From: Eledone cirrhosa
Lineage: Eukaryota
Assembly (NCBI GenBank): GCA_964016885.1
Contig: OZ024753.1
Coordinates: 3,906,001-3,970,000 of the forward strand
Reading direction: 5' to 3'
DNA length: 64,000 bases
Under the pieces are notes generated by a model. It was given only the letters and a program-made list of their open reading frames with translations, searched no databases and was not told the origin of the DNA. The translations under genes were made by a program, and so were the position numbers. This document shows, piece by piece, positions 5,766 through 61,822 of this stretch (the stretch's first letter is position 1; each line of letters begins with the position of its first letter).

Positions 5766-6621
5766 GAACAAGAAAAAAGTTACTTATTTATGAGTTCATA
5801 GAGAACTGCAGGAGGCCAAACTGACATATTTCATTAGAAACAGATATATTTTGTAGTAACCGATAATGTATAATAAAGCAATTCCACCAAAGCAACGCGA
5901 CATTTGTGGAAGATAAATATTAGGTAGGAAAATGGACGAAGAATTCGCAAGATGATTAATGATGTGAGAAAATGTGTGTTTCTCGAGGGCTAAAACCAGC
6001 TTGAACATGACTCAAATAATGGAGATTTAGAGTTAAATAGTGTTAACCAAGTGAAGCTGCTACATCTAAACTTAGTGAATAGTTTGATTTGATATAAAAA
6101 AAATATCCCCAGAGCGAGAAAAAGAAACATAGCGAGAGAGTGCAGAGAGAGAGAACAATCTCAATATATTAAAACAAGATACATGACGACAATAATTATG
6201 TCTGGAAAGTGGCAATGCCAAAAACACCATGAAATGCATTAAGAGGTGCTTTGGTAACATTTAGTCTATACCCATACTCTCTCACTTTCTCTCGTTATAT
6301 ATATATATATATATATATTGTATATATATATTATATATACGTACTTGTAAAATGGAATAATACAACAGTATTGAAAACTAGATAAACTTTCTCCGTCGTT
6401 GAGTATACTTTACAAGTGAATTAGAAAAGAAAAATACAACCACTAACGTATCTGGCAAATATACAATTGAAACAACAGCATAAATATTGGTTGCTGCTAA
6501 ATATCGAAATGGATGTAGTATACTGTAGCTCGCATAGGCAATAACGAATGGGATATCACTTGTGCTTTAGTTGTAGCTAATAATCTTCTTTTTTAGCCGA
6601 ATCATATTCTAATGTTATGCA

Positions 6622-12859: not shown

Positions 12860-13662
12860 TCTCTCTCTCTATATATATATATAGAGAGAGATTATATATA
12901 TATATATAAAGTTGTAAGTCGTCTGTTTGTTTATTTGTTCACGAACTCCTATGGTTTTAGAGATAGAGCCCCATAACCATATATATTCTGAAACTACATT
13001 GCCCAGGATACTTGGATAAGTATATTTCAATTTAATCCAGGGTTTCTCCAGGGGCACAAATCCCCGCTTAAAATCTGTTCCCTTCGATTTATATGAAATT
13101 TAAACCATAGGTAAACGACGAGATATGGTGCCTATTCACAAAATTTCAGCAAATTTCAATAATATTAAGACACCCTAATGGGGGGGGGGGGGTTAAACAA
13201 AATAAAATAATGCTTTTCATAAAAATGAAATGATCAAGTTTTGAATTTATATTTTGAAAAAATTATTTACAATAAACAAAATAAGAATAAGATTTGATAA
13301 TATAATTTTGATTTTATATATTAGAAAAAATAATTGTTTCGACTTTTGGCACAAGGCCAGCAATTACCCAGTGCACTACTTTATCGACCCCGTAAGGATG
13401 AAAGGCAAAGTTAACCTCGGCTGGATTTGAACTCAGAATGGCAAGGGCCGTAACTATGCATCAAAACATGGCGTCCGACCCTCTACCGATACTGCCAATC
13501 CACCGCCGTATATTAGAAAAAATATTGTTTTCAAACTTTTCATGCATTTTTACATTGAAATGCAGAGTTTTTCTCCATAAATTATATCACTGATTTAAAA
13601 TCTGACTATTTTCTTACAAACAAAATGTGTGAAACGCATCAATGCGCGGGTAATCCGGCTAG
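12860..13662 (+). mobile_element. Probable non-autonomous Helitron with a nested SINE
   Basis: A|TC start followed by TATATATAAAG..GTCTGTTTGTTT; 3' hairpin CGCATCAATGCG (13635-13646) 12 nt before CTAG|T (13659-13663). These are canonical Helitron termini; the 5' boundary is uncertain. Confidence 0.5.
13333..13508 (-). mobile_element. SINE, full length with 16-bp TSD
   Basis: A-box-like TGGCAGTATCGG and B-box GAGTTCAAATCC on the minus strand; TSD TATATTAGAAAAAATA at 13317-13332 and 13509-13524. Confidence 0.93.
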
Positions 13663-14207
13663 TTAAATAATATAGCAAGAGGTTATTAAAGAAACCTACT
13701 GCAAATATTTAACGATAGTTTTGAACACACAATTGCCATTCTCTGGAATATAACGATGATAAGTTATTGAGCCCCTAAAACCCGACCTGTGCTTTAAGCA
13801 ATGTCATCATGTACCATTCTGAAATGTTTAATGCCTGCCTATTCTATGACAATTTAAATCCGAGCGTATTTGATGTAGATACAGTTTTACTAAGGGGTTC
13901 AAATAGCCTAGCGAAGCAAATGATAACGGATTTTCAAGGTATAGAAAACAAAAAATAATGATATCAATATTCGTTCAGGATTAATCTTACAATAGTTACA
14001 AACCATATATGTTAGTGTTAATGAAATTATGTGGCGACTGTTTCGCACTTCTTCACTATACTTCTCTGGAAGAAACTTGCTGTATTCACACCTGGAGAGA
14101 AGATGGATTCCACCGGGTTTAACCATGCCTTAGAAATGCTGTATGTCAATAGAGTGCACCTACCACTACATTAGGATTTACGGGATAAAGGAAGATTTAT
14201 TTATATA

Positions 14208-14248
<41 letters not shown>

Positions 14249-14283
14249 TTGAAAATTGCAAACCTGACTGTCACCACAGAATA

Positions 14284-14322
14284 TGAACCTGAAGATTGCG
14301 AAAGCATGAAAGTACTTGTTCA
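14284..14322 (+). ncRNA. Minimal type I hammerhead ribozyme motif (PLE-type)
   Basis: TGAAC-CTGAAGA-T TGC GAAA GCA T-GAAA-GTAC-TT-GTTCA: 5-bp stem I, intact core, GNRA-capped stem II, palindromic stem III, CUU triplet. Confidence 0.8.
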
Positions 14323-14454
14323 ATTAACACTTAATATTCTACCATACTATTTCATTCTAATACCATTATACATTTTAAAGGATTGTAAATAAAACGAGTA
14401 AATCAGACAAAGTTGGAATTCCTTTTATTAATATATATATATATATATATATAT

Positions 14455-14603
14455 ATTATTTCTGAAGACGGCATATATGTGTGTTTGGTATGTATATTTA
14501 ATCTTGATAGTTTGTATAATTTTGTATAATTTTGTACATAGATCTGTTGAATATGCATGCCAATTCTAACACATATATATCCTAGAAACGATCGTTAAAT
14601 AAT
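14455..14603 (+). ncRNA. Type I hammerhead ribozyme motif with very long stem II
   Basis: ATTATTT-CTGAAGA-[116 nt; ATATATGTGTGTT/AACACATATATAT pairing]-GAAA-CGATCG-TT-AAATAAT; GUU triplet. Confidence 0.75.
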
Positions 14604-14660
14604 GAACTTTTTTTGTTTAATATAAGGAACTGTTTCATTGTTTTATTCATTATTTTTTTA

Positions 14661-14713
<53 letters not shown>

Positions 14714-15461
14714 GTTTAGATATCTATCCACTGGAACCACTGGTAGAAAAGAGATAATTTGCATCATTAATATAAATACTGAATACCTCCCCATTATATG
14801 TTGATTGTTTTTTTTTTTTTATTTCCTGTGTAAGCGGCTACTGTATGTATGTAAGAAAAATATTTCTACACGAATATGACCTGTGAACAATTGGCCCGAC
14901 ACATGTTTTCTATTCAATCTATTGTAAATACACGTAAAACATTACAACCTAAATAGTTACATAACTAGTCGTGTTTTCATTTCTACATCTCCCCATTTCC
15001 CTTCTTTACATAACTCCGGTACCCTTTCATAACATATCTTCCTATTTATAAATCTCCTGTTGAAATCATGGAATGAGAAGGAGAAGGAAAGAAGAATAAA
15101 AATGCAACAATACAAAAATTAGAACATTTCTTGAAGAGAATATATATATATATATAAATGCTATAAATTGCTGTTTTGTCTCTTGCTCCCTCCACATGAC
15201 AGCGCTTTGACTTGAGTCAGTAGCTGTGACCTCGGTTGGGCAAGCAGTAGCGATTGTATGGGTCGAAACAGACAAAGTTCATATCAACTGCTGTTGGCGC
15301 TGGAGATCTGTGTCTTTCATTTGTATGTATATTTTCAAAAAATAATTTTTTGTGGTTTCACTTTAAAAAAGTTTCATTCGTTTCGACTTGATTTCGTACG
15401 TTATGCTGTTCTTTTTTTTGTTGTTCTTTTTTTGTTGGTTATGTTGTTCTTTTTTTGTTGG

Positions 15462-15499
<38 letters not shown>

Positions 15500-15621
15500 A
15501 TAATAATAAATATGAAAACTAAAATCCAAATAGGGCTCATTAAGAATAATATATATATATATATATATATATCAAAATATATAAAACCATAGACCAAATA
15601 TTTATCAAAAAGGCAGATTAA

Positions 15622-15672
15622 AGTTTAAGCAAGGAATCGCTGCTTTCACCCTAAACGGGATCTTCTGAAACT
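15622..15672 (-). ncRNA. Degenerate type I hammerhead ribozyme motif
   Basis: Minus strand: AGTTT-CAGAAGA(U4>A)-T CCC GTTTA GGG T-GAAA-GCA..TGC-TT-AAACT; all three stems are present. Confidence 0.6.
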
Positions 15673-17407
15673 ATAAAAAAAAAAAAAAAAATCAATCTGT
15701 GGACGCAGAAGTAATATTTCGAAAACGTTGCAAGCGAAGGAAAACAGGAAGACGATACTTTGGTTGGTGAAGACGTTCCCTGGATATTTCGTATTCTTAA
15801 CAATTGAAAAGAAAATAAGGGACAAAAGAATTAAATAATGTCTGGCTTTGAATCTTGTTGCTACTACATATATACGTATTCAACAATATGACTAAAAAAG
15901 GATAGCAAGAACGAATCCAATCCAATTATACATTTCACGCATTGGATTAAGTCATAAAATTCTTCCCTTTATTTGCTGTTCTCCCAAATAATATTTCTTA
16001 TACTTTTTTATGTATTGGTCATCACATTTCTTATTCTTTCACTCATCTCGTTTCGCAGAGGGATGCTGGAATATTGTATGTAGGTAGGAAACAGAAAGGG
16101 TAAAATAGATCTCGTCAAAAGCGCGCAACTAGGATGGAATGCATAACTGTAGACTGTTTTCTATATAATAACTCGTTTTATATGAGAAACAAGAAAAATA
16201 ACACACATACCATTAAAAAAATAACAGAAAAAAATATCCAGAATTCTGACGGCGGAGGAATAATTTCTATCAATGAAAGAATGGAAACTGAAACATGATG
16301 CTGTGTATAATCTATATAGTCTTTACTTGCTAGATTTTGAATTCTCTGTCCGCTCCTCCTTGTTTTTATTAACAATTATTTCTTCATGATCTATCCTTCT
16401 TTCTGTCTATCCATGGAAAGATGTCAATGACATTCTGCACTTTTCTACCACCCCCCCGCCTCTATATCTATTTCAGCATACACATTCTCTAGCACTCGCT
16501 CTTTACCTCAACGTTTTGTCTCACCTACAATTGAAAGAATACATTCTTGTGACTTTTTCTGTCTAACTCTTTATTTATATCTATTGTTGTTATTTCATTT
16601 TTAGAATTGTTTCTATTTCCTTCGCCATTTTCATTGTATTCTTTGTCTGGTTTTAATCTCCAACGCCGTTTCTAGTATTTTCTCTCTCACATCAAACTTG
16701 TTTAATTCACACATATATTATCACACGCACTCATACACCCACAGTTTTCTAATTTTCACTTATTCTCTCCTACTAAGTTTCTCTCTCTCCCTCTCTCTCT
16801 TGTTAAAGTACTTGTATCTTTTGTAGCATTGCTCTAGTTGGAATTTAGAACTGGAATATAATAAAGTTACAAACGACGACGGAGTAAAACCCACAACAGG
16901 AGTAGCAGCAGCTGAGAAGAGAAAAAAAAAGAAAAAAAAGGAGAGAAACAGTGGGGGGGGGGGGGGGGGGCAGCGTATCACATGGAGTGGCACGGTGATG
17001 ATGAAGATTAGGGGAGTGAAGCAGTGAGAAGAAAATGAGGAGGACAGATAGGATGAGAATGATGAAAATGAAGGTGATGTGGTAGGAGAGATGGAGGAGT
17101 ATGAAGAAGCGGAGGTGGAAGAAATAATTCCGTTAAGTTGGCAGTAGTGGTGATATATAGGGTAGCAGGGCGGAAACGATGGGTAGAAAGTATTCCACGG
17201 GAATGTGTTAAATAATTAGGTCTCGAGGAGAAGCGGAAATGGTTATTGCTGGAAATGTTAGCTCTGTTGATTGTGATGATGATAATGATGAGATGCTGTT
17301 GTTAGTGGTGGGAGTGGGATATGTGTAGGAGATGGTAGAGAAAATGTTTGAAGTTAGCTGAAGAAAAGCGTGGATTACATTATTGACAGGTAGAGAGGTA
17401 AACCTTA

Positions 17408-17528
17408 CAGGCACGCGCGCATACATAATTATGTGTGTGTGCACGCGCGTGTGCGCGTGTGTGTGCGTGTGTGTGCGTGCGTGCGCGTGTTTGTGCGTGC
17501 GTGTGTGTGCGTGTGCGTGTGCGTGTGC
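17408..17528. repeat. (GT)/(GCGT) compound microsatellite
   Basis: Alternating purine-pyrimidine tract, directly visible. Confidence 0.9.
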
Positions 17529-17692
17529 AGGAGGTGAGTTTTATTGTAGTACAATAAAGCAATGCAGATATCGGATAAGAAGCACTCTACAGTTTGTAGG
17601 ACTGGAGTATACATAATATAATATATAAGATATATGTTGATTTAAAGCTGCACTATCCACAAGTGTTTTTTAACCTTCATACCATGTCTTCC

Positions 17693-17763
17693 TATTTTAT
17701 CTGATGAAAACACAAATGTTATTGCATGATAATATTTGTTTTTGAAATGCGCATAATAAAATA
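17693..17763 (+). ncRNA. Type I hammerhead ribozyme motif, intact
   Basis: TATTTTAT-CTGATGA-[AAACACAAATGTTAT/ATAATATTTGTTTTT stem II]-GAAA-TGCGCA-TA-ATAAAATA: 8-bp stem I, palindromic stem III, AUA triplet. Confidence 0.88.
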
Positions 17764-17919
17764 TATGGAACTCTTAACCATCTTTTGATCTTATATATAT
17801 ATATATTATATATATATATATCTTGTGCCAAATGTAGAAACAATTATATATATATATATATATACACACACGCACACACACAAATATTTATATATATATA
17901 TATATTTATATATATATTC

Positions 17920-17972
<53 letters not shown>

Positions 17973-17978
17973 AATATT

Positions 17979-18018
<40 letters not shown>

Positions 18019-18050
18019 AATATTTGTGTGTGTGTATGTACATATACATA

Positions 18051-18240
18051 TAATTGTTTCTACATTTGGCACAATGCCAGCAATTATCCCAGTGTATTAC
18101 TGGTACTTTAGTTTATCGACCCCGTAAGGATGAAAGGCAAAGTTAACCTCGGCGGGATTTGAAATCAGACCATAAAGGGACGTAACTCTTTGCTGCAAAG
18201 CATGGTGTCCGACCCTCTACCGATACTGCCAATCCACCAC

Positions 18241-18242
<2 letters not shown>
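18051..18242 (-). mobile_element. SINE, full length
   Basis: Same family as the copies at 13333 and 45379, with head, central domain and tail; abuts (TA)n. Confidence 0.92.
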
Positions 18243-18300
<58 letters not shown>

Positions 18301-18621
18301 TTATCTCTTTTCTTTTCCCTGTATTTTTGTACTTTATTATTTTTTTTATTACTTATTATTTCTGATCATGAGTAATACCCTCACTCATCCCTTGCTACCC
18401 TCTCCCAACCTCTTTATCATCGATTGCACCATTTAAGTGATACATTTTTGTTGTAATTTTTAATTTTTTAATTTTTAAGACGTTTTATGACATTATGTGC
18501 ATCATATATTTTGTCTTTTTCCATATAGCGCTGGCCTCGTGAACCCCCTGCTGGTCCTTTAGCCTTGTTCTGGTGACGCAGCTCGATGAAGCATGCAACT
18601 ACTGATATATTCATGTTTATA

Positions 18622-18668
18622 GGCTCTGATGACTCCTGCCATGATGTATGGATGAAACACTGTTAGCT
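18622..18668 (+). ncRNA. Type I hammerhead ribozyme motif, partly decayed stems
   Basis: GGCT-CTGATGA-C TCC TGC..GTA T GGA T-GAAA-CACTG-TT-AGCT then AATAAA (18669-18674); GUU triplet. Confidence 0.65.
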
Positions 18669-19140
18669 AATAAATCAATGTATTTCTAAGCACACTTTGG
18701 TTATTTCTATAATTATAACGGCTTTGTAGTATACTAGTTATCCTCTATTGATCTAAAACCACACTGTCATACCAAGGCCAATATATCTGCATGTCTGGGC
18801 ATATTGATATATTTGTCAATGAAATATATATATATATATATATATATATATGGAGAGAAAGTATTAGAGAGGTCTATAAATAAATTTATAAATGCGTGTG
18901 GGCTGGCATGGAGTTTGTAAGAGCAATATGGTGTGAAGGAAAGCCTCTGATATTCTGTCGAGATTTGGTTCCGATATCCGGTTACCGGTTAAGCTGTTTC
19001 CTTTCGAGAAATCTGTATCCTATTGGTTACGCTACGAAACCTGATAGATTGGTTACGCTACTGTGATTTAATCTTCGTTTACTATATGAAATATGTTTTG
19101 CACTTTTGTCTTGGAGAGAGAGAGAGAGAGAGAGAGATGT

Positions 19141-19256
19141 TATCAACCCCGTAAGGATAAAAGGCAAAGTTAACCTCGGCGGGGTTTGAAGTCAGACCAT
19201 AAAGTGCCGTAATTCTATTGCTGCAAAGAATGGTGTCCGACCCTCTACCGACACTA
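19141..19256 (-). mobile_element. SINE, truncated, abutting (GA)n
   Basis: ACCCCGTAAGGATAAAAGGCAAAGTTAACCTCGGCGGGGTTTGAAGTCAG...GACCCTCTACCGA. Confidence 0.88.
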
Positions 19257-20772
19257 TGTAACATACATTATATAATTATTTATGTGCAATTTATAATTAC
19301 TGATTATCAACATTATCATTCATTTTACAAAATCTACCAGTGCTGAAGCAGAATTTGTACTGGTTCAGTTTACTTTCAAGGTATTGTATCAACATCACAT
19401 TTCATGAGCTACTTTAAAATGAATATGAGATATTCCTTTTTCTAATATTTTTAGTGCTAGAAAACCTCTCGAAATATCCCATCTCTCAATAAATACGTGC
19501 CAACAAAATATGGCGTGGATAAATTAGTAATTGCATGCATAGCGTTAAGAAATCTTATGAATCTTTAAGCATTTGTTGAGTTTCAAATATATGATTGTAT
19601 ATATGGGGAAAGGGCCAGGAGATAGCAATACAAGCGAGATGGACAGATACACATCCATACAATTGTGGGGAAAATTGAATATATAAACATTATTTATTAA
19701 TTGACAAGAAAGAACAGCCGTACTCCCACTGTCATCACCTCCATCTCTCTAGCCCTCCGCAGCTCTCTGTACGGTGAGCAAATGGGGTCCCACGTGCTGG
19801 CTTCCCGACAGCGCCGGCGCACAGAATGGAGAAGGCAGAAGCGCTGGAAGTGCCATTCCAACTCGTGAGGCTCACACCTGTTTTAATTTAAGTATTCTTA
19901 ACAATGGATATGATAAGATGTAATTTTAATTAATTCAAGATTTGTGAACATAGATGATACAACCTTAATGAATAAAACATGTATGTGATTGTTCGACTGA
20001 GATACAGCAGACTTCCGGCGTCGAAGTCGCTATCTTTTTCTTAAAATATGTCTCAAATGTCTACCATGCGTCCTGGAGGCGGTAGGTTGTTTGTTATCTT
20101 TTTAAAAATATTTGGTTATCAAAATGATGGTACGTCCCTGAGGACGAAGCGTCCTCGGTGCCGGGAAATACGGTATGTGCCAATATTTTTTTTAAAAGTG
20201 ATTTATAAAAGAAATAACAATCTTGGTGTTGTTTATGCATCGATTTTTAGAAGATCAAACATAAGATTAAAGATTTATACATTGTAATAATATATTTCAG
20301 TTCAATTGTGATAATATCAAACATCATTGCTAATCATACTTTTCGACTTTTAACGACTGGGCCAATGCACTGCCTTGGTTATATATCACTTAACATTAAA
20401 GTGACAAGAACTCTCAATTCCAACGTATCTAGATCTTCAAGAGCAACATCAGAGTCCATAGACCCTATCAAGAAATGACTTGCCCACATTCAATATCATT
20501 ATAACCAAGACAAGAAATATGGATATGATCACAAATATATACACACACAATATATATATACATAGAGAGAGAGAGAGATTGTTATACTTGGGGAGGGTCA
20601 TATTGTTATAATATTGCCAGAAATAATAACAGAACACACTCACTGTTTAGTTTGGGTTGGTTTTCGCTTCTGTATCTATATATAAATATAGTTATATATA
20701 TATACAAATGGAGTATTTCCGAAGGAAAGGTAAAGGAAAATAGAGTGATATATGTAGACTACAGAGCTTTTA

Positions 20773-20886
20773 AGTTATGTATTAAACAACATCAGATAAT
20801 TCATTTACCAAAGGTTTCATGAAGACAGACGTCTGTCTTCATGAAACCTTTGGTAAATGAATTATCTTATATTGTTTAATACATAG

Positions 20887-20888
<2 letters not shown>
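20773..20888. repeat. Spacerless palindrome (74-bp perfect core 20794-20867, ~116 bp with mismatches)
   Basis: AGATAATTCATTTACCAAAGGTTTCATGAAGACAGAC|GTCTGTCTTCATGAAACCTTTGGTAAATGAATTATCT. Confidence 0.95.
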
Positions 20889-20938
<50 letters not shown>

Positions 20939-21015
20939 CAAGATATAGATATGTCCCAAGGCTCTGATACCATCAACACCATAAACACAGAGCTGGCATA
21001 TCTAAGAACTGACTA

Positions 21016-21071
21016 ACTGCCTGATGAGGTCATAGCCATTCAAAAGCTATCATCGAAATATATATAGCAGT
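21016..21071 (+). ncRNA. Type I hammerhead ribozyme motif, intact
   Basis: ACTGC-CTGATGA-GGT C ATAGC [loop] GCTAT C ATC-GAAA-TATATA-TA-GCAGT then AAATAAA; AUA triplet, palindromic stem III. Confidence 0.88.
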
Positions 21072-21717
21072 AAATAAAGGTTATGAATTCATGCAATTGA
21101 CTTATGTTTCGTCACTATGTATATATATATACCTGCGATAGTTCTGTGTTATATGTAGGTATATGCGTACATTTCCTTATATTTACATTACGTAAATAAT
21201 ATACAATAAAAAAAAAATACTTTACACAAGTAAAATAAGGTCCAAGATGATACAACATGTAGCTAACATCTAAACACAAATTATGAATAGCAATCTAAAA
21301 CAAACTATAAACGCGGTATACAATGACATAAGATGGGTGCCAAATGCAGAAGTGAAACATACTTTGAATGTTGAATTAATGGATCATTTTTCTATTTCTA
21401 TTGAACAACCTATTCCTTCGTTGTTCCCACAATGAATGCTTATACACCCTTAACTGCTAATGCTTCATATAAAACTTATTATATTCGATACATTTCCATG
21501 TTATATATGAGAAGACCACACACCCACTTCTGTCATATATACCTACAAAGGATTGTTCTGACGAGTGCTATTATATTTATATACGTACATGCACAAACAC
21601 ATTCATACACGGACACACACATGCATGATCACACACAAATGTTTATTCATTTAAATATTTATAAAGGTGTGTGAACTTGTGCTTGTACCTATATATATAT
21701 ATATAGGAACGAGTAGG

Positions 21718-21813: not shown

Positions 21814-23238
21814 AATTCCATACATGGTAAAAGTGATTGTCACAAGGATTGGTCAAAAGTTTGTTGTTGAGACACATAATTCTATCATGGCAATTTGTGG
21901 GAAGAAGGGGTAGCTGAACCTTCCAGTAGAAGAAAGAGGGAGAGGGAGTGGAGGAATCCCAGTCGTGCGTTGATAGAGCCAACTACAGCAGGGCAGGAGG
22001 TCAAGCAAGTATACTAGGGAGGGGGAGGAGGAGGAAGTCGAAACAATAAGTAAATCAATATGGAGGAAATATATAGAAGAATACCAAGAATGTTAAAAAT
22101 ATAAAAAAAACAAAGGGAATAGTAACCAGAAAGTGTGTGTGAATGTGCGTGCGTGCGTGCGCGTGTGTGTGTTACTACATATTTACGAGGAGATGGTTGA
22201 AGCAGAGCGTGAAAGAGGAGGCAAAGGAAAGGAAATGAACGAAATGGAATAAAAGATAAATCAGAAACATCTATTGGTGAGTGATTTGCTATTTAAATCC
22301 GATATTACTCTCATATTGCATACATTTTTGTATATTTTGCTTTATTTCATAGCGTAAAATCAGATTCGGTGAAATTCATAGCAAATAACATATAGCGAAT
22401 TAACTAACTGGAAGTCTACTTCCTCGTTTCCAAAATGTATAGAGAAATAAGAAAATAAACTTATTGTACTGACTGTACAGTATGGAGTTTTATATATATA
22501 TGTTGTTTAAAGCCAATATAGTCAAATGAAATATGTGACCAAATCTACGACGGAAAACGTTTTACCAATTTTCGAGAACATATAATTTAGTAAAAGTGAG
22601 AATTGAGCAACAGTGTTAGAAAGTACAGTACACAATTTTCAAAGATGATATGAATAAAACACATTACATCAATGATGATAACTATCGGGAAATCTGCTAA
22701 CGAGTGTTGTTCTCTAGGTTCACAGGATCGGCTGCTATATCAGTGGAAATTATTTCAAATATATTAAGGACGCCTTAGATAATATAGCTATAGAGATGGT
22801 GGCTTCTCCATCATTTTACATTCTGAGCATTCGTATATTTGATATCCTGAATGGTTTGGTCACTAAATTAGACATCGAATTAGACAATTTTTAGTTTTCT
22901 GCTTTCCTCAACCGTTCACAAATGTGCTGCTAAAATGCCCCACACTTCTGGTTGAAATATGATGGCACGTGCCACCTGCGATCTACGATAGTGAAGTACA
23001 TCCTAATTTCCATGCTTCCAGTCAACAACTCGCAGCTCCGCTACTCGCCAGTCCACGACACGCAAACATATGTATCTTCGTTTTCCCGGTCATGTGAGCC
23101 CGTGTCGTTGCACGAACAATGCAACTTCGCTCCTATTTCTGCAAATTCTGTTGACGGCATTTCCGTTTAAGATGTATTTGATGAAGATGATCTGATAAAA
23201 TTCTCTTTTGAATCCTCCACCGTTACTACAGGACCCTG

Positions 23239-23502
23239 GTGAGGTTGCTACACACACCAGACGATAAAATAGAGAGATCGGAGCTCCAATATCATGAGCA
23301 TGTTGTTAGAATGTCCCAGGAAAGAATGATTACACAGATTTTACCAGCAAAACCAAACTGCTGGAGAGCCAGTGGTAAACCCCGAGCAAGATGTTTGGAT
23401 AACATTCATGAGTTTGGTTGGTCTCGCTTGCCCATCCAGCCAGATTATTTGGAAAGTATTGATTCTGGCAGGACTCTCTGGAAGGAGTTTTTGAGGACGT
23501 AA
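23239..23502 (+). mobile_element. RTE-clade LINE 3' fragment (decayed)
   Basis: KIERSELQYHEHVVRMSQERMITQIL.AKP...SGKPRARCLDNI resembles the RTE C-terminal pattern LRWxGHVxRM...RGRPRxRW. Confidence 0.7.
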
Positions 23503-30050: not shown

Positions 30051-30089
<39 letters not shown>

Positions 30090-30091
<2 letters not shown>

Positions 30092-30200
30092 AAGGCGGGT
30101 AAAATTCCCGAGATCCATGGACGAGTTCTCTCCAGCGGTCTCTGTCCCTCATCATTGCTGCCATATCCTGCATCTCCAACAGACCAGTGTCTGTCCTTAG
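30090..30200 (-). mobile_element. RTE-like LINE extreme 3' end embedded in (TA)n
   Basis: Closely similar to 49064-49172 (GAGATCCATGGACGAGTTCTCTCCAGC.GTCTCTGTCCCTCATCATTGCTGC). Confidence 0.8.
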
Positions 30201-31593: not shown

Positions 31594-32199
31594 TAAATCA
31601 CTGCTTAGTATTTTTAGCGAATGTTGCTAACGTTTCATATACTATTATTTGTATTACATGGTGTTTATTTGTTGGGACCGACGAAGAGACAATCTTATGA
31701 TTGTATTGTTGTAGCCTTCTGTGTTATGTTATAATTATTATTGACTTCACAGCATGCTTTTCAGATAACTGTATGTCATATATAAATGCAACATCATAAA
31801 CTAAAGATTGTGAACCATCGAATGTCGGTGTGTAGTTCATTTGCTTTAAAATATTTTATGATAAAATTCAATATTGCATATGCTGGCCTCCTACGTATAT
31901 AGAAGAAATAAACATAGAAATTCTATTCATTTATTTGTAAAGAATGTCGGTTGATTATAACATTGAGTTGCGATGAAGAAAATAATACTAATTAATGCTT
32001 TAAATATTTGAGTTCATATTAACGCTGTTGCTATTGTGTTTAATTATTTAACATAGTATGATTATGAATTGCTTTTCTTCTTCATCCCTCCCACTTGTTC
32101 CCAAAAGGATCGTGAAAGCAGGCGTACAGCTCTCTTCCTTCTCGCGATGCTTTAATGAACAAACTCCAGCATTTCTGCATTTAATGAAGCTTCTCGTTG

Positions 32200-32290
32200 T
32201 TCTATGTTCGTGAAAATAGGATAGAGGATACTTGAAATTTTCCACCTGCTTTAGCGTAAATTCATTCAAATAAAGAGCGCATCGCGAAAG
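32200..32290 (-). mobile_element. RTE-like reverse transcriptase scrap
   Basis: LKQVENFKYPLS resembles the RT motif LxQVxxFKYLGS; heavily decayed. Confidence 0.4.
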
Positions 32291-34089
32291 CTTTCTTGTA
32301 TGAAGGGATGAACCAATACTCGAGAATAAATTTTAGGTATCCATCTTTTGTCGAAGATCAGGCTACACATTTTACACCGACCTCTTGAAACCAGGCTGCG
32401 AATGTCACTCCCATTGGTTTTGAGTGTAAATATTACAGAAATTATTTTACAATATATATAGGAATGGACTGTAAAGGACAGAGAGACAGATATACACGAG
32501 TTCATAGAAAGTTCCGTATTTATATGTCCGTGACAGGCAACCCTAGGAATAAAATTCCTATGAAGAGCAGCAAGCATCTAAAATAGGAAAATCTTCCTTA
32601 TTTTAGAAATAGCACAGGAATAATGCGAAATCAATCAGCAATTATTCAAATCAAAGGGTTATAATAAAAATTAGAAAAAGAATATCAATGACTGAAGTAC
32701 CACTCGGAACATCGAGTTATTCAGGCGTTTTGAAACACACCCTCACCAAACACACATACAATATATAAATATACCCACACAGTGCATGTGTGCAATTTTT
32801 TGCAAAAACCGTCACATCATTTCCGTACACGCTGCTAAACTCACTCACTATATGAAAGTGTAATATTGTGCATTATGCTGCATGATCCGTAAAATCAATT
32901 TGAGGACCAAAGCGAGTAATTGTAATATACAGTTATTAATATAGTATATAATACACTTCCATAATTTTGTCGATTACTGGATATGGTATCAATATGAACA
33001 CTCTGTACTATATTAGAGGGTGTACATTAAGCACGATATAGCGAAATTTTGTTGTATCGAGAATTATCTATGCTTCAAAGAAAATTGGCTTGAGATATGT
33101 GTGTGTATGTGCGTGCGCGTGAGCCTGTGCGTGCGTGTGTGTAATAAAACAAGTGTATATATATATATATATATATATATACATACACACACATACATAT
33201 TGGTTTCTACCTGTTTATAGTAGAGTCGGGAACGTTAGGACGGCTTTGAATGCTTTACTTTTGGCTTCCTTCGAACGACCATTTTCATAAATCTAAAATA
33301 TGTATAAACGAAACCAGAGCTTCAATCAGATAGTTTCTTATGAAAAATATAATTATATATAAACATATTTTTGACGAATATATAACTGTTTCAAAATCGT
33401 TAACTGAACTAACAGCGTAGTAAAATTAACATTTGAATATCTGGCTCAAAACCCGACTTAGTGTTTTAATAGAACGACCTGATCTATGGTGTATCTGCAG
33501 TTTCTCTAATAAAATTGTCCCGTGAAAGTATATTGTCACGTGTCCACGGTGTTTGGGTTCACATTTGCAATGTTCCAGCTCCTGTCACCATACTGGTGGA
33601 CGCGATGTATCATTTGATACAGTTCAAGTTCAGCCAGTTGTAAATGAATACCAGATGCAGTTGTGTATAAGTTCTGTAACGGAATAGCGTCCTGTACCAA
33701 AAGTGCGTTCCCTACTAAATACGCTAACTTTCCATGCATGCGGAATAAGCCCCGGTCTTTGTGCTAGAATAAAGAAATTGACGTAATACTATAGCTGAGT
33801 AAATATGACTTGAATCTTATATTTTAAATAAGATAAAGTAAAATTCTACAGAGAAATATAAATTTGGCGTAGTAATATTTTTAATTTGCTGAGATATTAT
33901 GTAACGAAATCATTATATAAAATGCTTTCCACCTATTGTTCAAACTTAACCTTTTGAGCATTAGTAAAATAAGTTATAATATTTTAAGTTTGATAACATC
34001 TTTCGTTAGTTGATATCAATATTAAATCATGTATGTTCTAGAAATTTAGATCAAATTAACATGATTTTGCTTGACATAATTATATTTGA

Positions 34090-35950: not shown

Positions 35951-35982
<32 letters not shown>

Positions 35983-35995
35983 GCATACATATATA

Positions 35996-36868
35996 GATAT
36001 ATAGTTATATTTATATATATATAGTTATATTTATATATATATAGTTATATTTATATATATATAGTTATATTTATATATATATAGTTATATTTATATTTAT
36101 ATATATATATATAGTTATATTTATATTTATATATATATATATAGTTATATTTATATATATATATATAGTTATATTTATATATATATATATAGTTATATTT
36201 ATATATATATATAGTTATATTTATATATATATATAGTTATATTTATATATATATATAGTTATATTTATATATATATAGTTATATTTATATATATATATAG
36301 TTATATTTATATATATATAGTTATATTTATATATATATAGTTATATTTATATATATATAGTTATATTTATATATATATAGTTATATTTATATATATATAA
36401 TTATATTTATATATATATAGTTATATTTATATATATATAGTTATATTTATATATATATATGTGGTTATATTTATATAGTTATATTTATATATATATATGT
36501 GGTTATATTTTTATATATATATGGTTATATTTTTATATATATATGTTTATATTTATATGGTTTATCTATATATATATATATATATAGTTATATGTTTTAT
36601 GTATATATAGTTATATTTATATGTTTTATATATATATAGTTTATTTATATATATATATATATAGGGTTTATTTATTTATATATATATATGGTTTATTTAT
36701 ATATATATATAGGGTTTATTTATTTATATATATATATGGTTTATTTATTTAATATATATATATATAGTTTTATTTATTTAATATATATAGTTTATTTATT
36801 TATATATATATAGATATTTATTTATTTATATATATATAGATATTTATTTATTTATATATATATAGATA

Positions 36869-36900
<32 letters not shown>
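35996..36900. repeat. AT-rich minisatellite (GTTATATT(TA)n) grading into GGTTTATT/GATATTTATT variants
   Basis: Directly visible ~20-24 bp unit with a variable TA run. Confidence 0.95.
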
Positions 36901-38156
36901 CATATGGCTATATATATCATTACTTTTTCATCCATGGATTTTTCCTTGTTAAACAACAACTACTCCTACTATTTCATATTTTGCTTGTTTCATATAATCG
37001 CGGCTCATTACTATATTTGATCATCATCATCATTGTCTATATCCCTATCACTAGCACCAGATACCATTTCGATCACTAGCTATGTCAGCGGTGTCACGAT
37101 GCCTTTCACAGTCGCTCCTGTCATCCTTATTACAACCACAACCATTAGCATTTTCACTACCATCAATATAATCCCTAAAACTATTACCTTTTGTATTACC
37201 AGGAAGAGAACCTCCCCTTCCTCTAACCCAGACACACGACTATCAGTAAAATCAGCAAGCATCTTAGACTCCACTTCTCATCCCACAACAATAACTACAT
37301 TATCTATAGTACATCTCATGTTTGCACATTCCACTCTTTCATTAATTCCTTGTCGTTTGACATTTAATATATATTCTCAATTGTCTTACATTTGTCGATA
37401 TCTTTATTACGATGCTTGTTAATGTTTTTGTTTTTATTATTGTTGTTGATACAATTGTACTCATAGTAAATATTGTTTTCCTTTTGTTGCTGTTGCTATA
37501 TATAAAGTGGTTATTATTGTTTCTGTTGCAATTCTGGTTACAGTTTTTTTAATCGATATAATTGCATATATAATAGATGTTGTTGTTATTGAAGTTATTG
37601 TTGCCGTTGTAGGTGGATTTTTTTATATAGTAGCTGTTAGTTTTGTTATTGCAGTTGTTGCTTCTCGCTGTGTTATTGATATTTCTGCAGTCATAATAGC
37701 CGGATTTGTTGCTGTCTTGTCACAGTTATCGTCGATATAATTCGTCTTATATAATTTGTTAATATTGTAGTTTTTTAGTGTATTTATTGACTTTCGTATC
37801 TGATTATCATTGAAACACTTCATGTGTATATATGTGCCTTCCTTATCTCCCAACTCACCATCTTGTTAAATATTTACCCTCGGGGCTTTAACTCCTTTCT
37901 GCCTAATCATATATGCATATAAATTATGGAGACATTGTTCTGACAATATATCAATATGTCACTTTACCTCTATACATATCTATCTGTCTCTGCGCGCACT
38001 CACACACATACATAAGTTTAAATGAATTAATACAACCAGGTAAAGGCGAAACTTCAAGGGTTATGTACACACAAATATATATATATATAGATGGATATAT
38101 ATATAGAGAGAGAATTGAAAAAGTGAAGAATAGCATGGTCAACAGTACAAAAAATA

Positions 38157-41619: not shown

Positions 41620-44400
41620 TGGAACCAACGTCACCAGCAACCGACCTGATCAGCAACAAACACCAGCGGCAACCAACGCCACCGGCAACCAACGCCACCA
41701 GCAACCAACGCCACCAGCAACCAACGCCACGAGCAACCAACGGCAACAGCAACCAACGTCAACGGCAACCAACCTCACCAGCAACCAACGCCACCAGCAT
41801 CCAACCTCACCAGCAACCAACGTCACCAGCAACCAACCCCACCATCAACCAACTCCACCATCAACCAACTCCACCATCAACCAACTCCACCAGCAACCAA
41901 CTCCACCAGCAACCAACACCACCAGCAACCAACTCCACCATCAACCAACTCCACCATCAACCAACTCCACCATCAACCAACCCCACCATCAACCAACCCC
42001 ACCATCAACCAACCCCACCATCAACCAACTCCACCATCAACCAACTGCACCATCAACCAACTCCACCATCAACCAACTCCACCATCAACCAACTCCACCA
42101 TCAACCAACTCCACCATCAACCAACGCCACCATCAACCAACTCCACCAGCAACCAACACCACCAGCAACCAACACCACCAGCAACCAACACCACCAGCAA
42201 CCAACACCACCAGCAACCAACACCACCAGCAACCAACACCAGCAGCAACCACCTCCACCAGCGACCAACTCCACCATCGACCAACGCCACCAGCAACCAA
42301 CGCCACCAGCAATCAACGCCACCATCAACCAACTCCACCATCAACCAACTCCACCAGCAACCAACTCCACCAGCAACCAACTCCACCAGCAACCAACTCC
42401 ACCATCAACCAACTCCACCATCAACCAACTACACCAGCAACCAGCCCCACCAGCAACCAACCCCACCATCAAACAACTCCACCAGCAACCAACGCCACCA
42501 GCAACCAACGCCACCAGCAACCAACGCCACCAGCAACCAACGCCACCAGCAACCAACGCCACCAGCAACCACCTCCACCATCAACCAGCTCCACCATCAA
42601 CCAGCTCCACCATCAACCAGCTCCACCATCAACCAGCTCCACCATCAACCAGCTCCACCATCAACCAGCTCCACCATCAACCAACTCCACCAGCAACCAA
42701 CTCCATCAACCAGCTCCACCAGCAACCAACTCCATCAACCAGCTCCACCAGCAACCAACTCCATCAACCAGCTCCACCAGCAACCAACTCGACGATCAAC
42801 CAACGCCACCATCAACCAACGCCACCATCAACCAACGCCACCATCAACCAACGCCACCATCAACCAACGCCACCATCAACCAACGCCACCATCAACCAAC
42901 GCCACCATCAACCAACGCCACCATCAACCAACGCCACCATCAACCAGCTCCACCAGCAACCAACTCCATCAACCAGCTCCACCTTCAACCAACTCCACCT
43001 TCAACCAACTCCACCTTCAACCAACTCCACCATCAACCAACTCCACCATCAACCAACTCCATCAACCAACTCCACCATCAACCAACTCCACCATCAACCA
43101 ACTCCACCATCAACCAACTCCACCATCAACCAACTCCACCATCAACCAACTCCACCATCAACCAACTCCACCATCAACCAACTCCACCATCAACCAACTC
43201 CACCATCAACCAACTCCACCATCAACCAACTCCACCATCAACCAACTCCACCATCAACCAACTCCACCATCAACCAACTCCACCATCAACCAACTCCACC
43301 ATCAACCAACTCCACCATCAACCAACTCCACCATCAACCAACTCCACCATCAACCAACTCCACCAGCAACCAACTCCACCAGCAACCAACTCCACCAGCA
43401 ACCAACTCCACCAGCAACCAACTCCACCAGCAACCAACTCCACCAGCAACCAACTCCACCAGCAACCAACTCCACCAGCAACCAACTCCACCAGCAACCA
43501 ACTCCACCAGCAACCAACTCCACCAGCAACCAACTCCACCAGCAACCAACTCCACCAGCAACCAACTCCACCAGCAACCAACTCCACCAGCAACCAACTC
43601 CACCAGCAACCAACTCCACCAGCAACCAACTCCACCAGCAACCAACTCCACCAGCAACCAGCTCCACCAGCAACCAGCTCCACCATCAACCAGCTCCACC
43701 ATCAACCAACTCCACCATCAACCAACTCCACCATCAACCAACTCCACCATCAACCAACTCCACCATCAACCAACTCCATCAACCAACTCCACCATCAACC
43801 AACTCCACAAGCAACCAACTCCACCATCAACCGACACCATCATTAACCAACTCCACCATCAACAACTCCACCAGCAACAACACTACCATCAACCAACTCC
43901 ACCAACAACAACTCCACCAGCGCCAACCTAACGAGTACCAAACTAACCAGTAATCAGCCCCAATCTCACCAACAACCAACACCACCAGCAACCAACCTCA
44001 CCAGCAACCAACCTCACCAGTAATCCAGACCACCAACAACCAACCTCAACAGCAACCAACCTCAACAGCAACCAACCTCAACAGCAACCAACCTCACCAG
44101 TAATCAACACCACCAACAACCAACCTCACCAGCAACCAACACCACCAGCAACCAACTCCACCAGCAACCAACTCCACCAGCAACCAATCCCACCAGCAAC
44201 AAACCCCACCATAAACAACACTACCAGCAGCCAACTCCTCTAGCAACCAACGCCACCATCAACCAACTCCACCATAAACCAGCTCCAACATCAACCACCT
44301 CCACCAGCGCCAACCTGACGAGTACCAAACTAACCAGTAATCAGCCCCAATCTCACCAACCCCACCAGCAACAACACCACCATCACCACCTCCACTAGCA
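41620..44400. repeat. 16-bp minisatellite (ACCAACTCCACCA[T/G]CA)n with degenerate flanks
   Basis: Directly visible. The 770-aa ORF shows 16-aa periodicity (3 x 16 nt) and lacks stop codons because of its C/A composition. Confidence 0.95.
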
Positions 44401-46007: not shown

Positions 46008-46054
46008 TGCTCCGAAGAATCCAAGCCTAGGTTTGGATGAAACAATTGTAAGTG
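46008..46054 (+). ncRNA. Type I hammerhead ribozyme motif (U4>C)
   Basis: TGCT-CCGAAGA-ATCCAAGC CTAG GTTTGGAT-GAAA-CAATTG-TA-AGTG then AATAAA; 8-bp stem II, palindromic stem III, GUA triplet. Confidence 0.75.
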
Positions 46055-49013: not shown

Positions 49014-49063
<50 letters not shown>

Positions 49064-49065
<2 letters not shown>

Positions 49066-49340
49066 AGGGCGGCTAACATTCCTGAGATCCATGGACGAGT
49101 TCTCTCCAGCAGTCTCTGTCCCTCATCATTGCTGCTATGTCCTGCGTCTCTAAAAGACCTCTGTCTGTCCTTGGAGCATCAACCTATGTCAACCTCGGTC
49201 TCCCTCTTCTAGTTTGTCCGTGTAGGGTCACTGAGTACAGTGTCAACTCTGAATGTCGGTGACCATGTACAGGTAACCTCAATTTCCTCTGTGCTACTTT
49301 CGAGCTGACTTTTGGGAGGCTCCCGTACAGTTCAGAGTCC
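49064..49340 (-). mobile_element. RTE-like LINE 3' fragment ending at (TA)n
   Basis: Minus strand: ELYGSLPKVSSKVAQRKLRL..H..RH...HGQTRRGRPRLT*VD...MMRDRDCWRELV. Confidence 0.8.
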
Positions 49341-53620: not shown

Positions 53621-56332
53621 AAATTAGCTAAAACCCGCGTGTGGTGAAAACCAAAATGGGGACATACATATATGGGTGCCACATCTAACTTTAAAAAAAA
53701 AGACATATAGTATGTGCACACCCATTCATTCAAGGATCCCAGGCTACTTAAATCTACGGTGTGTGTGTGTGTGTGTGTGTCGACGTATAATTTTACTTTT
53801 ACAATTGGCTCTAACAAGCCTGATGTTTATTCAGTGCTATAAAGAGTAGGATTTTACTGAATGGATCCAGGCTGCTTTAACAGTATTTTGATTTCCTTGC
53901 TCTTTCGTTTAATCATATATAATACTGAACTCAATAATTTTTTGCTTGAAATACTTGACCGACATACTGAATTATCCAAACAAACGTAAAATAAAAATAA
54001 TCGATAAGTCTGCTTCTATGTATTAAAGGACGAAAACGCTGATCAAGGACCTTTTCATCATTACTTGGCTTTGATATATTGCCTAAATATTAATTGCAAC
54101 CATATTATTCAAAGAGAAACGCTCCTTTCCCCTTCAATCGCTTATTTTCTTTCTATTTATTCAATGGTTAAATTAATAAATACATAAATAAAATGAAAAG
54201 ATAGATAAACTTATATATAAACGTTAAAACAGAACAAAAAAACAAAACACAATATGTATCTCAAAGAAGCATTTTTCAATCTGGCACAACAGTTTAATCA
54301 ACTCTGGTCTACAGGATATCTGAATTAATCTAAAAACGGATTAAATTATGTTTCATATATTTTACCAGATGAAAGATTTTCGTTGTTTGGGTTTTTGATT
54401 TTACCCTGATGTTTATTTTTTCAAGTGTTTTGATATGGTAATGGAAGGTTACAAGTCGCTGAATCAATAAGGATATGTACTTCTGAACAAAAAGGTGTTG
54501 GTTCGTATCGGATAACTTATAAAATGCAGTGTCTTTTCAAAATGATAAAGCAGTTCAACTAGGCGCAGCAAAATAATTACTGAATCATTGGTGGCGTTAG
54601 CAGGCGACATTGTGTAATTCTTATTTCGGGGACGATGCGAATAACGGTTGTGTGGAAACATAGAGCGAGTGCTTATGCTCACACACGCATATCCATGCAA
54701 TCTCACACACACGTGTGTGTGTGTGCGTGTTCAAAGGCAGTGCAATGTATTGTTCCACGTTGCTATAAAGAAAGCATGGACAAGCAAGTATTACTATCTA
54801 TGAATGGAGCGTCTAATAGCTAAAAATAACAGCCCGAATTACTTAACCCCATCTTAGTAGCTTAATTTAGGGAAACCCATTGTTCAATGCAGTCCCACAA
54901 ATTTTAAAAATACTTAATCACGATTACGACACCAACAATTTTGGATGTGTTTAACACTGTCAGGTGATATTTGGGTCCCTTTAGGCGTGATCACTCCGTT
55001 ACATTATGTGGACTGGTTCGCTGGTTTATTATGTATATCTTTCCCATGACATGACCAAAGAACGGAGGTTCACAAGAATGACTGGATCACAAACGCTACC
55101 TTTCGTTCCAGCATCGATAGGCAGCATCATCATCAACTACGATAATATTAACAACAGCAACAGTAACAACGGCAACAAACAATTATCGTTAGAGTGCTTC
55201 AAACTGCCGTCTAATGACAGTATTTGTATTGCGTGAATATGTTAGCAAACATTGTACTGAAACATTGTAGTAAACGAACAACATAGAATGGCAAGCGTGT
55301 CAGAAATTTCGAAAACAAAAATAACTCTCATGAATTATGACTCTTTGACGCAATAGCCATTTAATTTACAGATGAAATTCGTATTAAATTGTAAAAGAAA
55401 ACAAATGAAATTTTGTATAAGGCGTCATTTGTTTATTTTCATTCGGCGTTTCAACAGTGTTTTATGAGAGTAGTTATGACATTGTAGCAGCAATAATCTC
55501 TTTTTTTCAATCTACTAATTATTTTCCTCTACACTCACCATCTCTATGCGTTTGCCTTTTTCCACAAAGTCATTCGTAGACACACACACTCTTACTGATC
55601 CCATAGGGAGAGACAAAATAATTTCTAACGCACTCCGTTGACAAACGATAATGCAAATTTCAATGAGGACATTGAACGTCAGACTAATATTTGATGCTGT
55701 CTGTAAGTGTGGCCTTGTGGCTGTTTGAAAAATCAATTATATTTTTAATCGAAATGCCTATACGCTAAAAATAAATCAGAATAATTGAGTTGTTGATTGT
55801 GTACCGCATCAGCTTTCCTTTAATGATCCCTTATGTAAAATGTAATCTATGAAGTATTCAACCGAGCCTCGTATGCATACATCCATATAAGTATGTATAT
55901 GTATGTTTGTCTGCATGGGGACATGGAACTATTCAGTTTGGTGTGTTTAGCTCAACGGGTGTGATATACCCCGAGTTATTATTAAAAAATAATTCTAACA
56001 GAAGGAAATCTGATGTAAAACTGCGACTCGGTGGCAGCAAGTGATGATGTCCTCTTTTCAGATTTGTCATCGTTGTTCAGAGAGGGTGCAAGGCATTTCT
56101 TGACTTAAACAGTATTAAGCAAATGTATCACCTGATTTAAATTCCCCTTGAGTGAGCATGGCCTGTTCGCTGCAGCATATGCAGAAATGAAACTAAGACC
56201 TTGGGAGGGACAAAAGGGCATGTTCATGGCAACATTGTAAAAGAAAAAATTCAAGGAATGGTAATGAGGGAAAGAGAGAGAGAGAAAGAGAAAGAGAGAG
56301 GTAGTTTTTTTCTTGTTTCATTATTTTGTATA

Positions 56333-56707: not shown

Positions 56708-57909
56708 GTGTGTGTGTGTGTATGTATGTGTGGTTCTGTATGTTTTAAGTCATATGTGTACACATACATATGTTTTCAAACTCTCAACGTCTATATGCAG
56801 TTAATACAAGTAGAATATAAACAACTATCCTGGCCAAACTATTACTATATCCTTTGAGAGCGTCGTACCCATGTCAAAGTTTGTCATCATCCCATAGAGT
56901 TTCAGGTGATCCACAAATTGATTATGGGTTAGGTCTGTATTCCTGTCTTTCTGTGAGCCAATTTTGAATACTTCACATTTCCTGAGCAGAAAGGACAAGG
57001 GATTTAATGACAGAATAATTAGTAAGAGAAAGAGAGAGACTGTCTACTTGAAATATACCCCTGCGATATTCTATGTTAGCAGTGGAAATAGAATCCTCCT
57101 TCTCTTGTTTTAAATTTAGAAAATTAGCCGAAGAGGACGATAGGTTCTCTATGGCCATGATAATATATCCTCAAAAGGTGAGTCTTCTCTTTCGTAATTT
57201 TGCTCTCGATAAAAAGTAGCAATACATGTTTCTGTCAAACATGTTTATATTCAGAAGACCCTTGCCAAAACCTCTAATCAATAGCTTTGAGAAGGGCGTA
57301 GTGTCGGTGTGGTGGAAATCTAATAGTCATATAGTGGTGATTGGTAAAGCATCAGCTATTTTGGATCATATTGACAAAGTAGATTAGATGGGACGTTTAT
57401 GATTAAATTTCATATATATTAATCCCCTCTCCAACTACAAAATAAAGAATAAATATTCCTGTATACATCTGCGTTTTATTAGAATATATAAACGAAATAA
57501 TGCTACTGCAATAACACCAATGTATGATTCTAGTGAGAACTATGTATTCCATGAAAATCCTTTCAGTTCGTGTACTATAAAGCTATTGAACGTATAGCTC
57601 AAAAGAGAAAAATAGATCTCAAAAGATGCAACAGGTCGACTTTCAATTGAATACGATACAATTTTTCTATTCACTGAATCATTAGGAAGGCTAGAGTAAG
57701 AAATACTCTTAGGATGAGCACGCTTCTCATTAATTTCACTTGATACAGTATATTCCCTACGTTATATTGCAGGTCGCATACATGCATGCTACTATCATCC
57801 GGGGGGGGGGGGTACGTGTGCGAATACACATATATATAAATACACACACACATATATATAAATAGACACACACACGCACATATATATAAATACACACACA
57901 CACACACAC

Positions 57910-57938
57910 ATACAAATTTATATATATATATATACAAA

Positions 57939-57976
<38 letters not shown>

Positions 57977-58317
57977 AATTCATATATATATATACAAATT
58001 CACATACATATATATATATATACATACATACAAATTCACATACATATATATATATACATACATACAAATTCACATACATATATATATATATACATACATA
58101 CAAATTCACATACATATATATATATATACATACATACAAATTCACATACATATATATATATATACATACATACAAATTCACATACATATATATATATATA
58201 CATACATACAAATTCACATACATATATATATATATATACATACATACAAATTCACATACATATATATATATATACATACATACAAATTCACATACATATA
58301 TATATACATACAAATTC

Positions 58318-58354
<37 letters not shown>

Positions 58355-58358
58355 AATT

Positions 58359-58389
<31 letters not shown>

Positions 58390-58394
58390 AAATT

Positions 58395-58425
<31 letters not shown>

Positions 58426-58639: not shown

Positions 58640-58672
<33 letters not shown>

Positions 58673-61722: not shown

Positions 61723-61822
61723 ATTGTTGTAGCTTTGTATGTATGTATGTGTGTTGGGTAATTCCGAAGAAAAAGCAAAGGAAAAAAAAAGTACTCTTTG
61801 TATAGAACAGAGCTATTAGAAA

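Follow-up and report, generated by a model that had tools for sequence, protein, structure and literature searches.

Hammerhead ribozymes (HHRs) of Penelope-like elements (PLEs) are dispersed in their thousands in many animal genomes. In the accessible part of the work of Cervera and de la Pena, most of them are single, highly variable motifs, probably derived from truncated PLEs, with a palindromic helix III and AU-rich flanks. For the Hydra clade, the available text and supplementary files of PMC8557442 give a stem III of 3-4 bp (file S2); a stem II of 12-26 nt (25 HHRs); a U just 5' of GAAA in 17 of 25 HHRs; 3' tails of 26-351 nt in 24 of 25 families and of 26-43 nt in 10 of the 24, one family with a 5'-terminal listed HHR being excluded from the count; an internal TA run shortly upstream of the ribozyme in one consensus; and a preference for (TA)n in 26 of 27 families (file S1, counted by eye). 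According to the same files, HHRs of this clade often deviate from the bulge and G10.1-C11.1 consensus of PMC4209133. Protein motifs listed for the clade in the material available are RWK, DKT, CxCX5C, CxxC and CxH, with CCHH absent.

A single minimal motif of S. mansoni is inactive and its dimers are weak, and no cleavage was seen for eight of nine Xenopus dimer elements. For the PAc Poseidon PLE of Anolis, cleavage by the ribozyme required the protein of the element, and uncleaved RNA was the main insertion substrate of the purified PLE (PMC11167929, part available). Canonical hammerheads are absent from Naiad PLEs, which also target (TA)n. Non-LTR retrozymes (PMC7229834; bioRxiv 10.64898/2026.07.22.740005), as far as these sources were accessible, are tandem repeats in which two or more successive units carry a canonical hammerhead (helix I of about 6 bp, helix II of about 4 bp, loop-loop contacts), and they give rise to plentiful RNAs, both linear and circular, of 170-400 nt; in animals they are described as derivatives of PLE pLTRs, of 51-972 bp, which also occur as monomers.

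In the window analysed here (the whole stretch of DNA, 64,000 nt, to which all positions refer), a descriptor scan identified a type I hammerhead at 17693-17763 on the forward strand, with an intact core and three stems, open at stem I. The locus comprises the following features.

17540..17558, strand not applicable: perfect 9-bp inverted repeat, one of five such sites in 64 kb
17554..17616, forward: short reading frame ending at a stop, with a loose likeness to the last codons of Hydra-clade ORFs
17608..17636, strand not applicable: AT-rich patch, longest pure TA alternation 7 nt
17693..17700, forward: stem I, 5' strand, eight A-U pairs with 17756-17763
17701..17707, forward: the catalytic core's first half, CUGAUGA, intact
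17708..17743, forward: stem II hairpin, 36 nt, with 13 Watson-Crick and two G-U pairs, one C.U mismatch, an A-U base and no bulged nucleotide
17744..17746, forward: second half of the catalytic core, GAA
17747..17754, forward: stem III, a perfect 8-nt palindrome with zero loop, predicted to pair between two molecules
17755, forward: H17, an A, with the predicted cut on its 3' side (position assigned by standard hammerhead numbering)
17755..17760, forward: AATAAA across the predicted cleavage site, 5 of 6 nt inside stem I
17756..17763, forward: stem I, 3' strand
17764..17791, forward: 28-nt 3' tail from ribozyme to microsatellite, likely the 3' end of the element
17792..17821, strand not applicable: (TA)n microsatellite with one interruption, likely the insertion target

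The core requirement CUGANGA...GAAA...UH is found in full, with a U directly 5' of GAAA. Stem I consists of Watson-Crick pairs in 8 of 8 positions, all A-U; stem II has 16 positions (15 pairs, with the C.U mismatch at pair 4) and a 4-nt loop, and its length is expected to have no effect on catalysis. A preliminary description of this DNA had reported an intact core, an 8-bp stem I, a stem II of about 15 bp and a palindromic stem III, which the sequence bears out save for the mismatch in stem II. It had also named this the best-preserved HHR; the motif has the longest stems of the five hammerheads found in the window, yet the mismatch and the A-U, not G-C, base of stem II detract from that rank.

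With Hydra-clade PLEs (Hydra-1_Obim, Penelope-3_HM; available parts of PMC8557442, files S1, S2 and S7) the locus shares a type I hammerhead near the 3' end, a stem III of 3-4 bp, the U before GAAA and a (TA)n neighbour. The tail of 28 nt at 17764-17791 compares with 30 nt in Hydra-1_Obim of Octopus bimaculoides, whose 3' end, as given there, shows by eye no sequence identity to the locus outside the core. If the (TA)n run marks the end, the hammerhead here lies, as in PLEs, near the 3' end with a short tail after it, and a canonical HHR combined with (TA)n is supportive of the Hydra clade, not diagnostic of it. Compared with the same files, the locus differs in its stem II (36 nt versus 12-26 nt), in the absence of an ORF and in a stem III that is a perfect palindrome without a loop. 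In the accessible part of PMC4209133, Drosophila willistoni PLEs also have a perfect 8-nt zero-loop palindromic helix III with an A at the cleavage site, so that the clade is not fixed; the metazoan PLE hammerheads of that study (D. willistoni, Aedes aegypti) further resemble the locus as dispersed single motifs with an expected dimer mechanism. Of the consensus given there, the palindromic 15.2-16.2 with loop 3 and the AU-rich flanks are present; the bulged nucleotide after A9 and the G10.1-C11.1 pair are absent, with an A-U pair in register instead, and stems I and II are longer. With its 36-nt stem II and 4-bp stem III, the motif therefore falls outside the published minimal descriptor.

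That AT-rich DNA yielded such a motif by chance is barely tenable. A descriptor as strict as the motif gave 0 matches in 1270 block-wise Markov-shuffled windows (591 + 679), and a looser one, drawn up after inspection of the published Hydra-clade table, gave four intact-core matches where 713 shuffles averaged 0.015. It would fit a chance origin that the folding energy of the whole motif is unexceptional (z = -1.35, not unusually stable; stem II hairpin, z = -3.25) and that no Rfam model matches it: at the gathering threshold there were 0 matches in the entire window, and at E <=10 the 48 sub-threshold matches in 13500-21600 did not include a hammerhead family. The other local motifs, however, likewise went undetected by Rfam, three of those four lying in the stretch scanned at E <=10.

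The four intact-core motifs lie at 14289, 17701, 18626 and 21021 (looser descriptor, 64-kb window). When one core change was allowed, one match was obtained, at 46012, against a shuffle mean of 0.19 (713 shuffles), and taken alone it is within reach of chance. The five are unrelated in sequence (no invariant column and a mean identity of 41% in an alignment that also included a half-motif at 20831), and 0 of 5 fit the published minimal descriptor (PMC4209133, part available). All five are followed by a run of at least (TA)4 no more than 200 nt away, as against 21-26% of positions (0.26 to the fifth power is about 0.001), at 28-156 nt from stem I. The preliminary description was right that the AATAAA at 17755-17760 spans the predicted cleavage site after 17755, but this is a trait of the class and nothing special to the motif, because 4 of the 5 have an AATAAA whose start lies 0-7 nt from H17 (background 1.1%). 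All five are on the forward strand (two-sided p about 0.06) and four are clustered within 7 kb, an arrangement that may be due to selection for orientation within a large gene or to a local preference of insertion.

Further observations concern these neighbours. The 14289 motif closely matches the Hydra-clade anatomy. At 14246-14430 and 20935-21117 (both forward), hammerhead cassettes some 185 bp long are bordered by true (TA)n at either end, which makes them cleaner sandwiches than 17633-17797. Hammerhead 18626 (18622-18668, forward) has an intact core and weak stems; hammerhead 46012 (46008-46054, forward) is altered at one core position and has a stem II of 8 bp; possible more decayed hammerheads, which did not pass the descriptor, are seen near 55209-55270 and 6200-6245. 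A near-perfect palindrome occupies 20773-20888, its two 58-nt arms meeting without a spacer. The 3' half of a hammerhead, from a stem II arm through GAAA, a 3-bp stem III and the cut site to the tail, lies in the right arm, at the end of which is (TA)n, and the centre of the palindrome is the expected position of the stem II loop; this suggests a cDNA folded back on stem II with a self-primed second strand, that is, a PLE-type 5' inversion.

Recruitment of the ribozyme by the host, for instance as a switch in a transcript between AAUAAA polyadenylation and self-cleavage, would be in keeping with the nearly intact core and stems, with an AAUAAA that the cut would divide and that stem I sequesters, and with the single strand occupied by 5 of 5 local motifs. 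We nevertheless consider it quite improbable: the Pfam scan of window ORFs detected no host gene, a young insertion also explains the intactness, the monomer is predicted to lack stem III, and an AATAAA near the cut is common in this class of elements (4 of 5 locally; in a count by eye, 9 of the 56 published PLE hammerheads in the available part of PMC4209133 have an AAUAAA 3' of the cut).

On its 3' side, the hammerhead is followed by a (TA)n run (17792-17821) that starts 28 nt past stem I and was also called by Tandem Repeats Finder; the same run abuts an unrelated repeat at 17823. On its 5' side, Tandem Repeats Finder made no call at 17608-17636. The sandwich between (TA)n runs of the preliminary description thus stands downstream and not upstream, and its cassette of about 165 bp, starting at 17633, loses its support in both 5' boundary and length, because the upstream tract is an AT-rich patch with at most 7 nt of pure alternation and no (TA)n array. 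Nor need this patch be a flank, since a published Hydra-clade consensus (PMC8557442, part available) has an internal TA run shortly 5' of the ribozyme. The inverted repeat at 17540-17558 may, as a weak candidate, mark a fold-back where the copy was really truncated at its 5' end. With respect to a pLTR, or to a partial tandem or inverted copy at the 5' end of a PLE, what is seen is this 9-bp fold-back and a direct repeat of 15 nt (17612-17626), both of them short. The reading frame at 17554-17616 is likewise a weak candidate for the remnant of a Hydra-clade ORF end: the pattern used, which was devised after sight of the sequence and in which Y replaces the conserved H, occurs once in the window (expected, 0.07 per window and 0.0007 in the target zones), and an Atlas search with the 30-aa frame 17524-17613 gave no usable match and no support for it. 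From these landmarks, the unit could be about 140, 165-180 or 240-250 nt long.

The shortest of these lengths is given by 17612-17626, a 14/15 copy, at period 140, of the 15 nt at the cleavage site (17752-17766). It is the sole 14/15 match of this 15-mer on both strands of the 64-kb window, and such a repeat was found for 16 of 1451 comparable AT-rich anchors outside large arrays. These figures, together with the lack of an attached ORF and the existence of monomeric, PLE-derived retrozymes in animals, would agree with a complete short non-autonomous element of about 140 nt, solo and retrozyme-like, that was mobilised by PLE proteins; the ribozyme would have released its RNA from a multimer, and the insertion would carry a short terminal redundancy. 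We regard this as unlikely, though worth keeping in mind: the repeat, found post hoc, is a 15-mer with 14 A/T positions; none of the other four local hammerheads has one; similarity does not extend beyond it (local alignment p = 0.45); the window holds no tandem or second copy; and a short helix II, as in canonical hammerheads of retrozymes, is missing, helix II here having 15 pairs. A more elaborate proposal is doubtful, namely that of a dispersed mini-retroelement of about 140 nt, bounded by its own cleavage site (17612-17626 / 17752-17766), which Hydra-type PLE proteins would put into TA tracts and whose hammerhead, cutting only as a dimer, would destroy its own polyadenylation signal; it would be one of many long-stem-II families here that are invisible to the published minimal descriptor.

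Compared with the non-LTR retrozymes in the accessible parts of the sources cited above, the locus is alike in being non-coding, low in GC and PLE-related, in its type I hammerhead and in a size within their range; it differs in its single copy, in the absence of a tandem unit and in the absence of the canonical short helix II. Copies and tandem arrays, which the preliminary description had proposed to look for, were sought in the 64-kb window. BLASTN of 17541-17830 returned the query itself and AT-rich pieces at E 0.001 or worse, with no second copy, and Tandem Repeats Finder called no array containing the ribozyme. The retrozyme-like label given earlier is therefore not upheld: neither a tandem unit nor a second, dispersed copy is present in the window, and the stems are non-canonical.

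Coding remnants were sought by running Pfam on 450 of the 487 stop-to-stop ORFs of at least 36 aa left after filtering (842 in all), a scan low in sensitivity that also missed the clear retrotransposon ORF end at 61306-61812; RT and GIY-YIG were absent, and the seven weak matches were all below curated cut-offs. Nine short PLE-ORF peptide patterns, some of them read from an alignment, gave three matches in the window, none of them 5' of a hammerhead. ATGs in the ribozyme region open frames of at most 20 codons; in the PAc Poseidon PLE, which belongs to a different clade, the ORF begins in stem II (PMC11167929, part available). The link to PLEs rests on RNA anatomy and context, because this insensitive scan detected no remnant of RT or GIY-YIG, and the absence of an upstream ORF is what is expected of a 5'-truncated copy. 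Exact-pattern scans of bacterial and archaeal genome contigs gave 0 and 0 matches, a result of little weight for an animal repeat; a distant BLASTN search of phage records gave one 43-nt match (E 0.05), taken as chance. The sequence 17693-17763 was absent from the literature searched and from the HHR table of PMC8557442, the supplements of which may list related families; of three occurrences of the stem III octamer in that supplement, two were examined, and neither lies within a hammerhead.

In its predicted mode of action the motif resembles a PLE hammerhead, and membership of the locus in the PLEs is likely. Our preferred reading, with a probability of about 0.65, is that 17693-17763, the 28-nt tail and the (TA)n run are the 3' end of a 5'-truncated PLE whose ribozyme is predicted to cleave only as a dimer. 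The earlier proposal of a truncated PLE unit targeted to (TA)n is thereby supported, by the anatomy, by (TA)4 downstream of 5 of 5 hammerheads versus 21-26% of positions, and by the published pairing of HHR and (TA)n in the Hydra clade. The hammerhead motif, the tail, the (TA)n run and the solo state within 64 kb are observed. By analogy with what is published on PLEs, AT-rich or (TA)n DNA would have been nicked by the GIY-YIG endonuclease of an autonomous PLE that resembled the Hydra clade most; reverse transcription, primed some tens of nucleotides 3' of the ribozyme, would have stopped after roughly 160-250 nt. As the genome contains 36 nt from beyond the cleavage site, the template RNA was probably not cut at 17755; in agreement with this, uncut RNA was the main substrate in vitro (PMC11167929, in the part available, where the model also has an AT-rich target, a start of reverse transcription 3' of the ribozyme and insertion of uncut RNA). 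In its favour, the truncated-PLE reading also has the neighbouring half-hammerhead in a fold-back with 58-bp arms ending in (TA)n, an inversion of the PLE type. Against it are a stem II that at 36 nt exceeds those of all 25 Hydra-clade HHRs, a downstream (TA)n that also borders an unrelated repeat, and the 14/15 cleavage-site repeat 140 nt upstream, which better suits a short self-contained unit.

Folding was carried out in ViennaRNA, which gives rough energies without Mg2+ or tertiary contacts. The pairing probability was 0.51-0.86 for stem I, depending on context, more than 0.9 for distal stem II and 0.0 for stem III of the monomer, in which stem III thus does not form within a single molecule; the active monomer fold, when forced, cost 5.7-5.9 kcal/mol. 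Stems I and II are accordingly predicted to form in one RNA and stem III only between two identical copies, in which a strand swap of the palindrome would create two active sites. Self-pairing of the palindrome amounted to -10.5 kcal/mol versus -1.6 to -6.4 for the other four motifs, and the strand-swapped active homodimer lay 0.6-0.8 kcal/mol above the unconstrained dimer minimum. For this homodimer, -8.1 kcal/mol (rough Kd 2 uM) was calculated for the minimal motif and -2.9 kcal/mol (rough Kd about 10 mM) in the context of the cassette; the homodimer energies of the other four minimal motifs were -3.0 to +2.6 kcal/mol. By these energies, 17693-17763 is the best predicted homodimer among the five local hammerheads. 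Hetero-duplexes with the four neighbours reached only -0.9 kcal/mol or weaker, so that a partner in cis is absent. Cleavage at this locus is predicted to be unlikely, since the monomer lacks stem III and the neighbours cannot partner the motif; the S. mansoni, Xenopus and Anolis results given above are in accord with this. The motif had been put forward as the top candidate for activity; in the model this survives as a relative ranking, as a homodimer, and a single copy is predicted to be inactive or nearly so. Most likely the locus is a silent remnant, because its neighbours in the window cannot provide a partner, and the ribozyme would have worked only in a tandem or protein-bound parent RNA.

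The surrounding DNA is AT-rich and microsatellite-rich, with retrotransposon fragments, and has the look of an invertebrate genome. A dispersed repeat of about 190 bp, SINE-like, without Rfam match and presumably resembling octopus repeats, is present at 18042-18243, with copies near 1906, 9500, 13330, 19140, 45379, 45717, 56333 and 60877 (at least eight long and three short partial copies besides 18042-18243, about 72-93% identity); a literature search with a 15-nt motif of this repeat found no match in print. An inverted duplication of one end of this repeat with flanking microsatellites (17823-17904 / 17993-18074) lies directly 3' of the (TA)n run at 17792-17821. The retrotransposon ORF end at 61306-61812 (reverse strand), which has 11 relatives at 41-71% identity, is taken by us, on its motifs, to be that of a non-LTR retrotransposon of the restriction-like endonuclease type; 23212-23502 (forward) and 32048-32332 (reverse) are presumably RTE-like fragments. 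Large mini- and microsatellite arrays at 41651-44308, 57852-60170, 35951-36917 and 63023-63835 (16-, 24/26-, 2- and 12/24-bp units) produce long spurious ORFs. A short repeat that starts in a (TA)n run is found at 30051-30198 and 49025-49172 (91% identity over 148 nt).

The hammerhead could also be one that happens to be held by the terminus of another TA-associated repeat (Naiad PLE, LINE/SINE or MITE), given that Naiads likewise target (TA)n and that short inverted matches (11 nt) occur between the flanks. This is more improbable still than recruitment by the host: Naiads do not have canonical hammerheads, whereas 17693-17763 is a complete one; the locus has no similarity to the dispersed repeat of about 190 bp; and the inverted matches between the two flanks, of 11-25 nt, are nearly all TA. 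A MITE with terminal inverted repeats was ruled out on the length and composition of these matches.

The class of hammerhead is already known and, judged by its sequence, the sole unusual trait of 17693-17763 is its 36-nt stem II. As a single remnant among such abundant dispersed PLE hammerheads, the locus is of little importance. Its strong, GC-containing palindrome is a convenient natural test of dimer-dependent cleavage and, if true, the 140-nt unit would stand directly between PLE ends and retrozymes as an intermediate. Four intact cores within 7 kb suggest that the host has a large and diverse set of hammerheads, and counts made with the published descriptor would miss such motifs, as 0 of the 5 in this window fit it.
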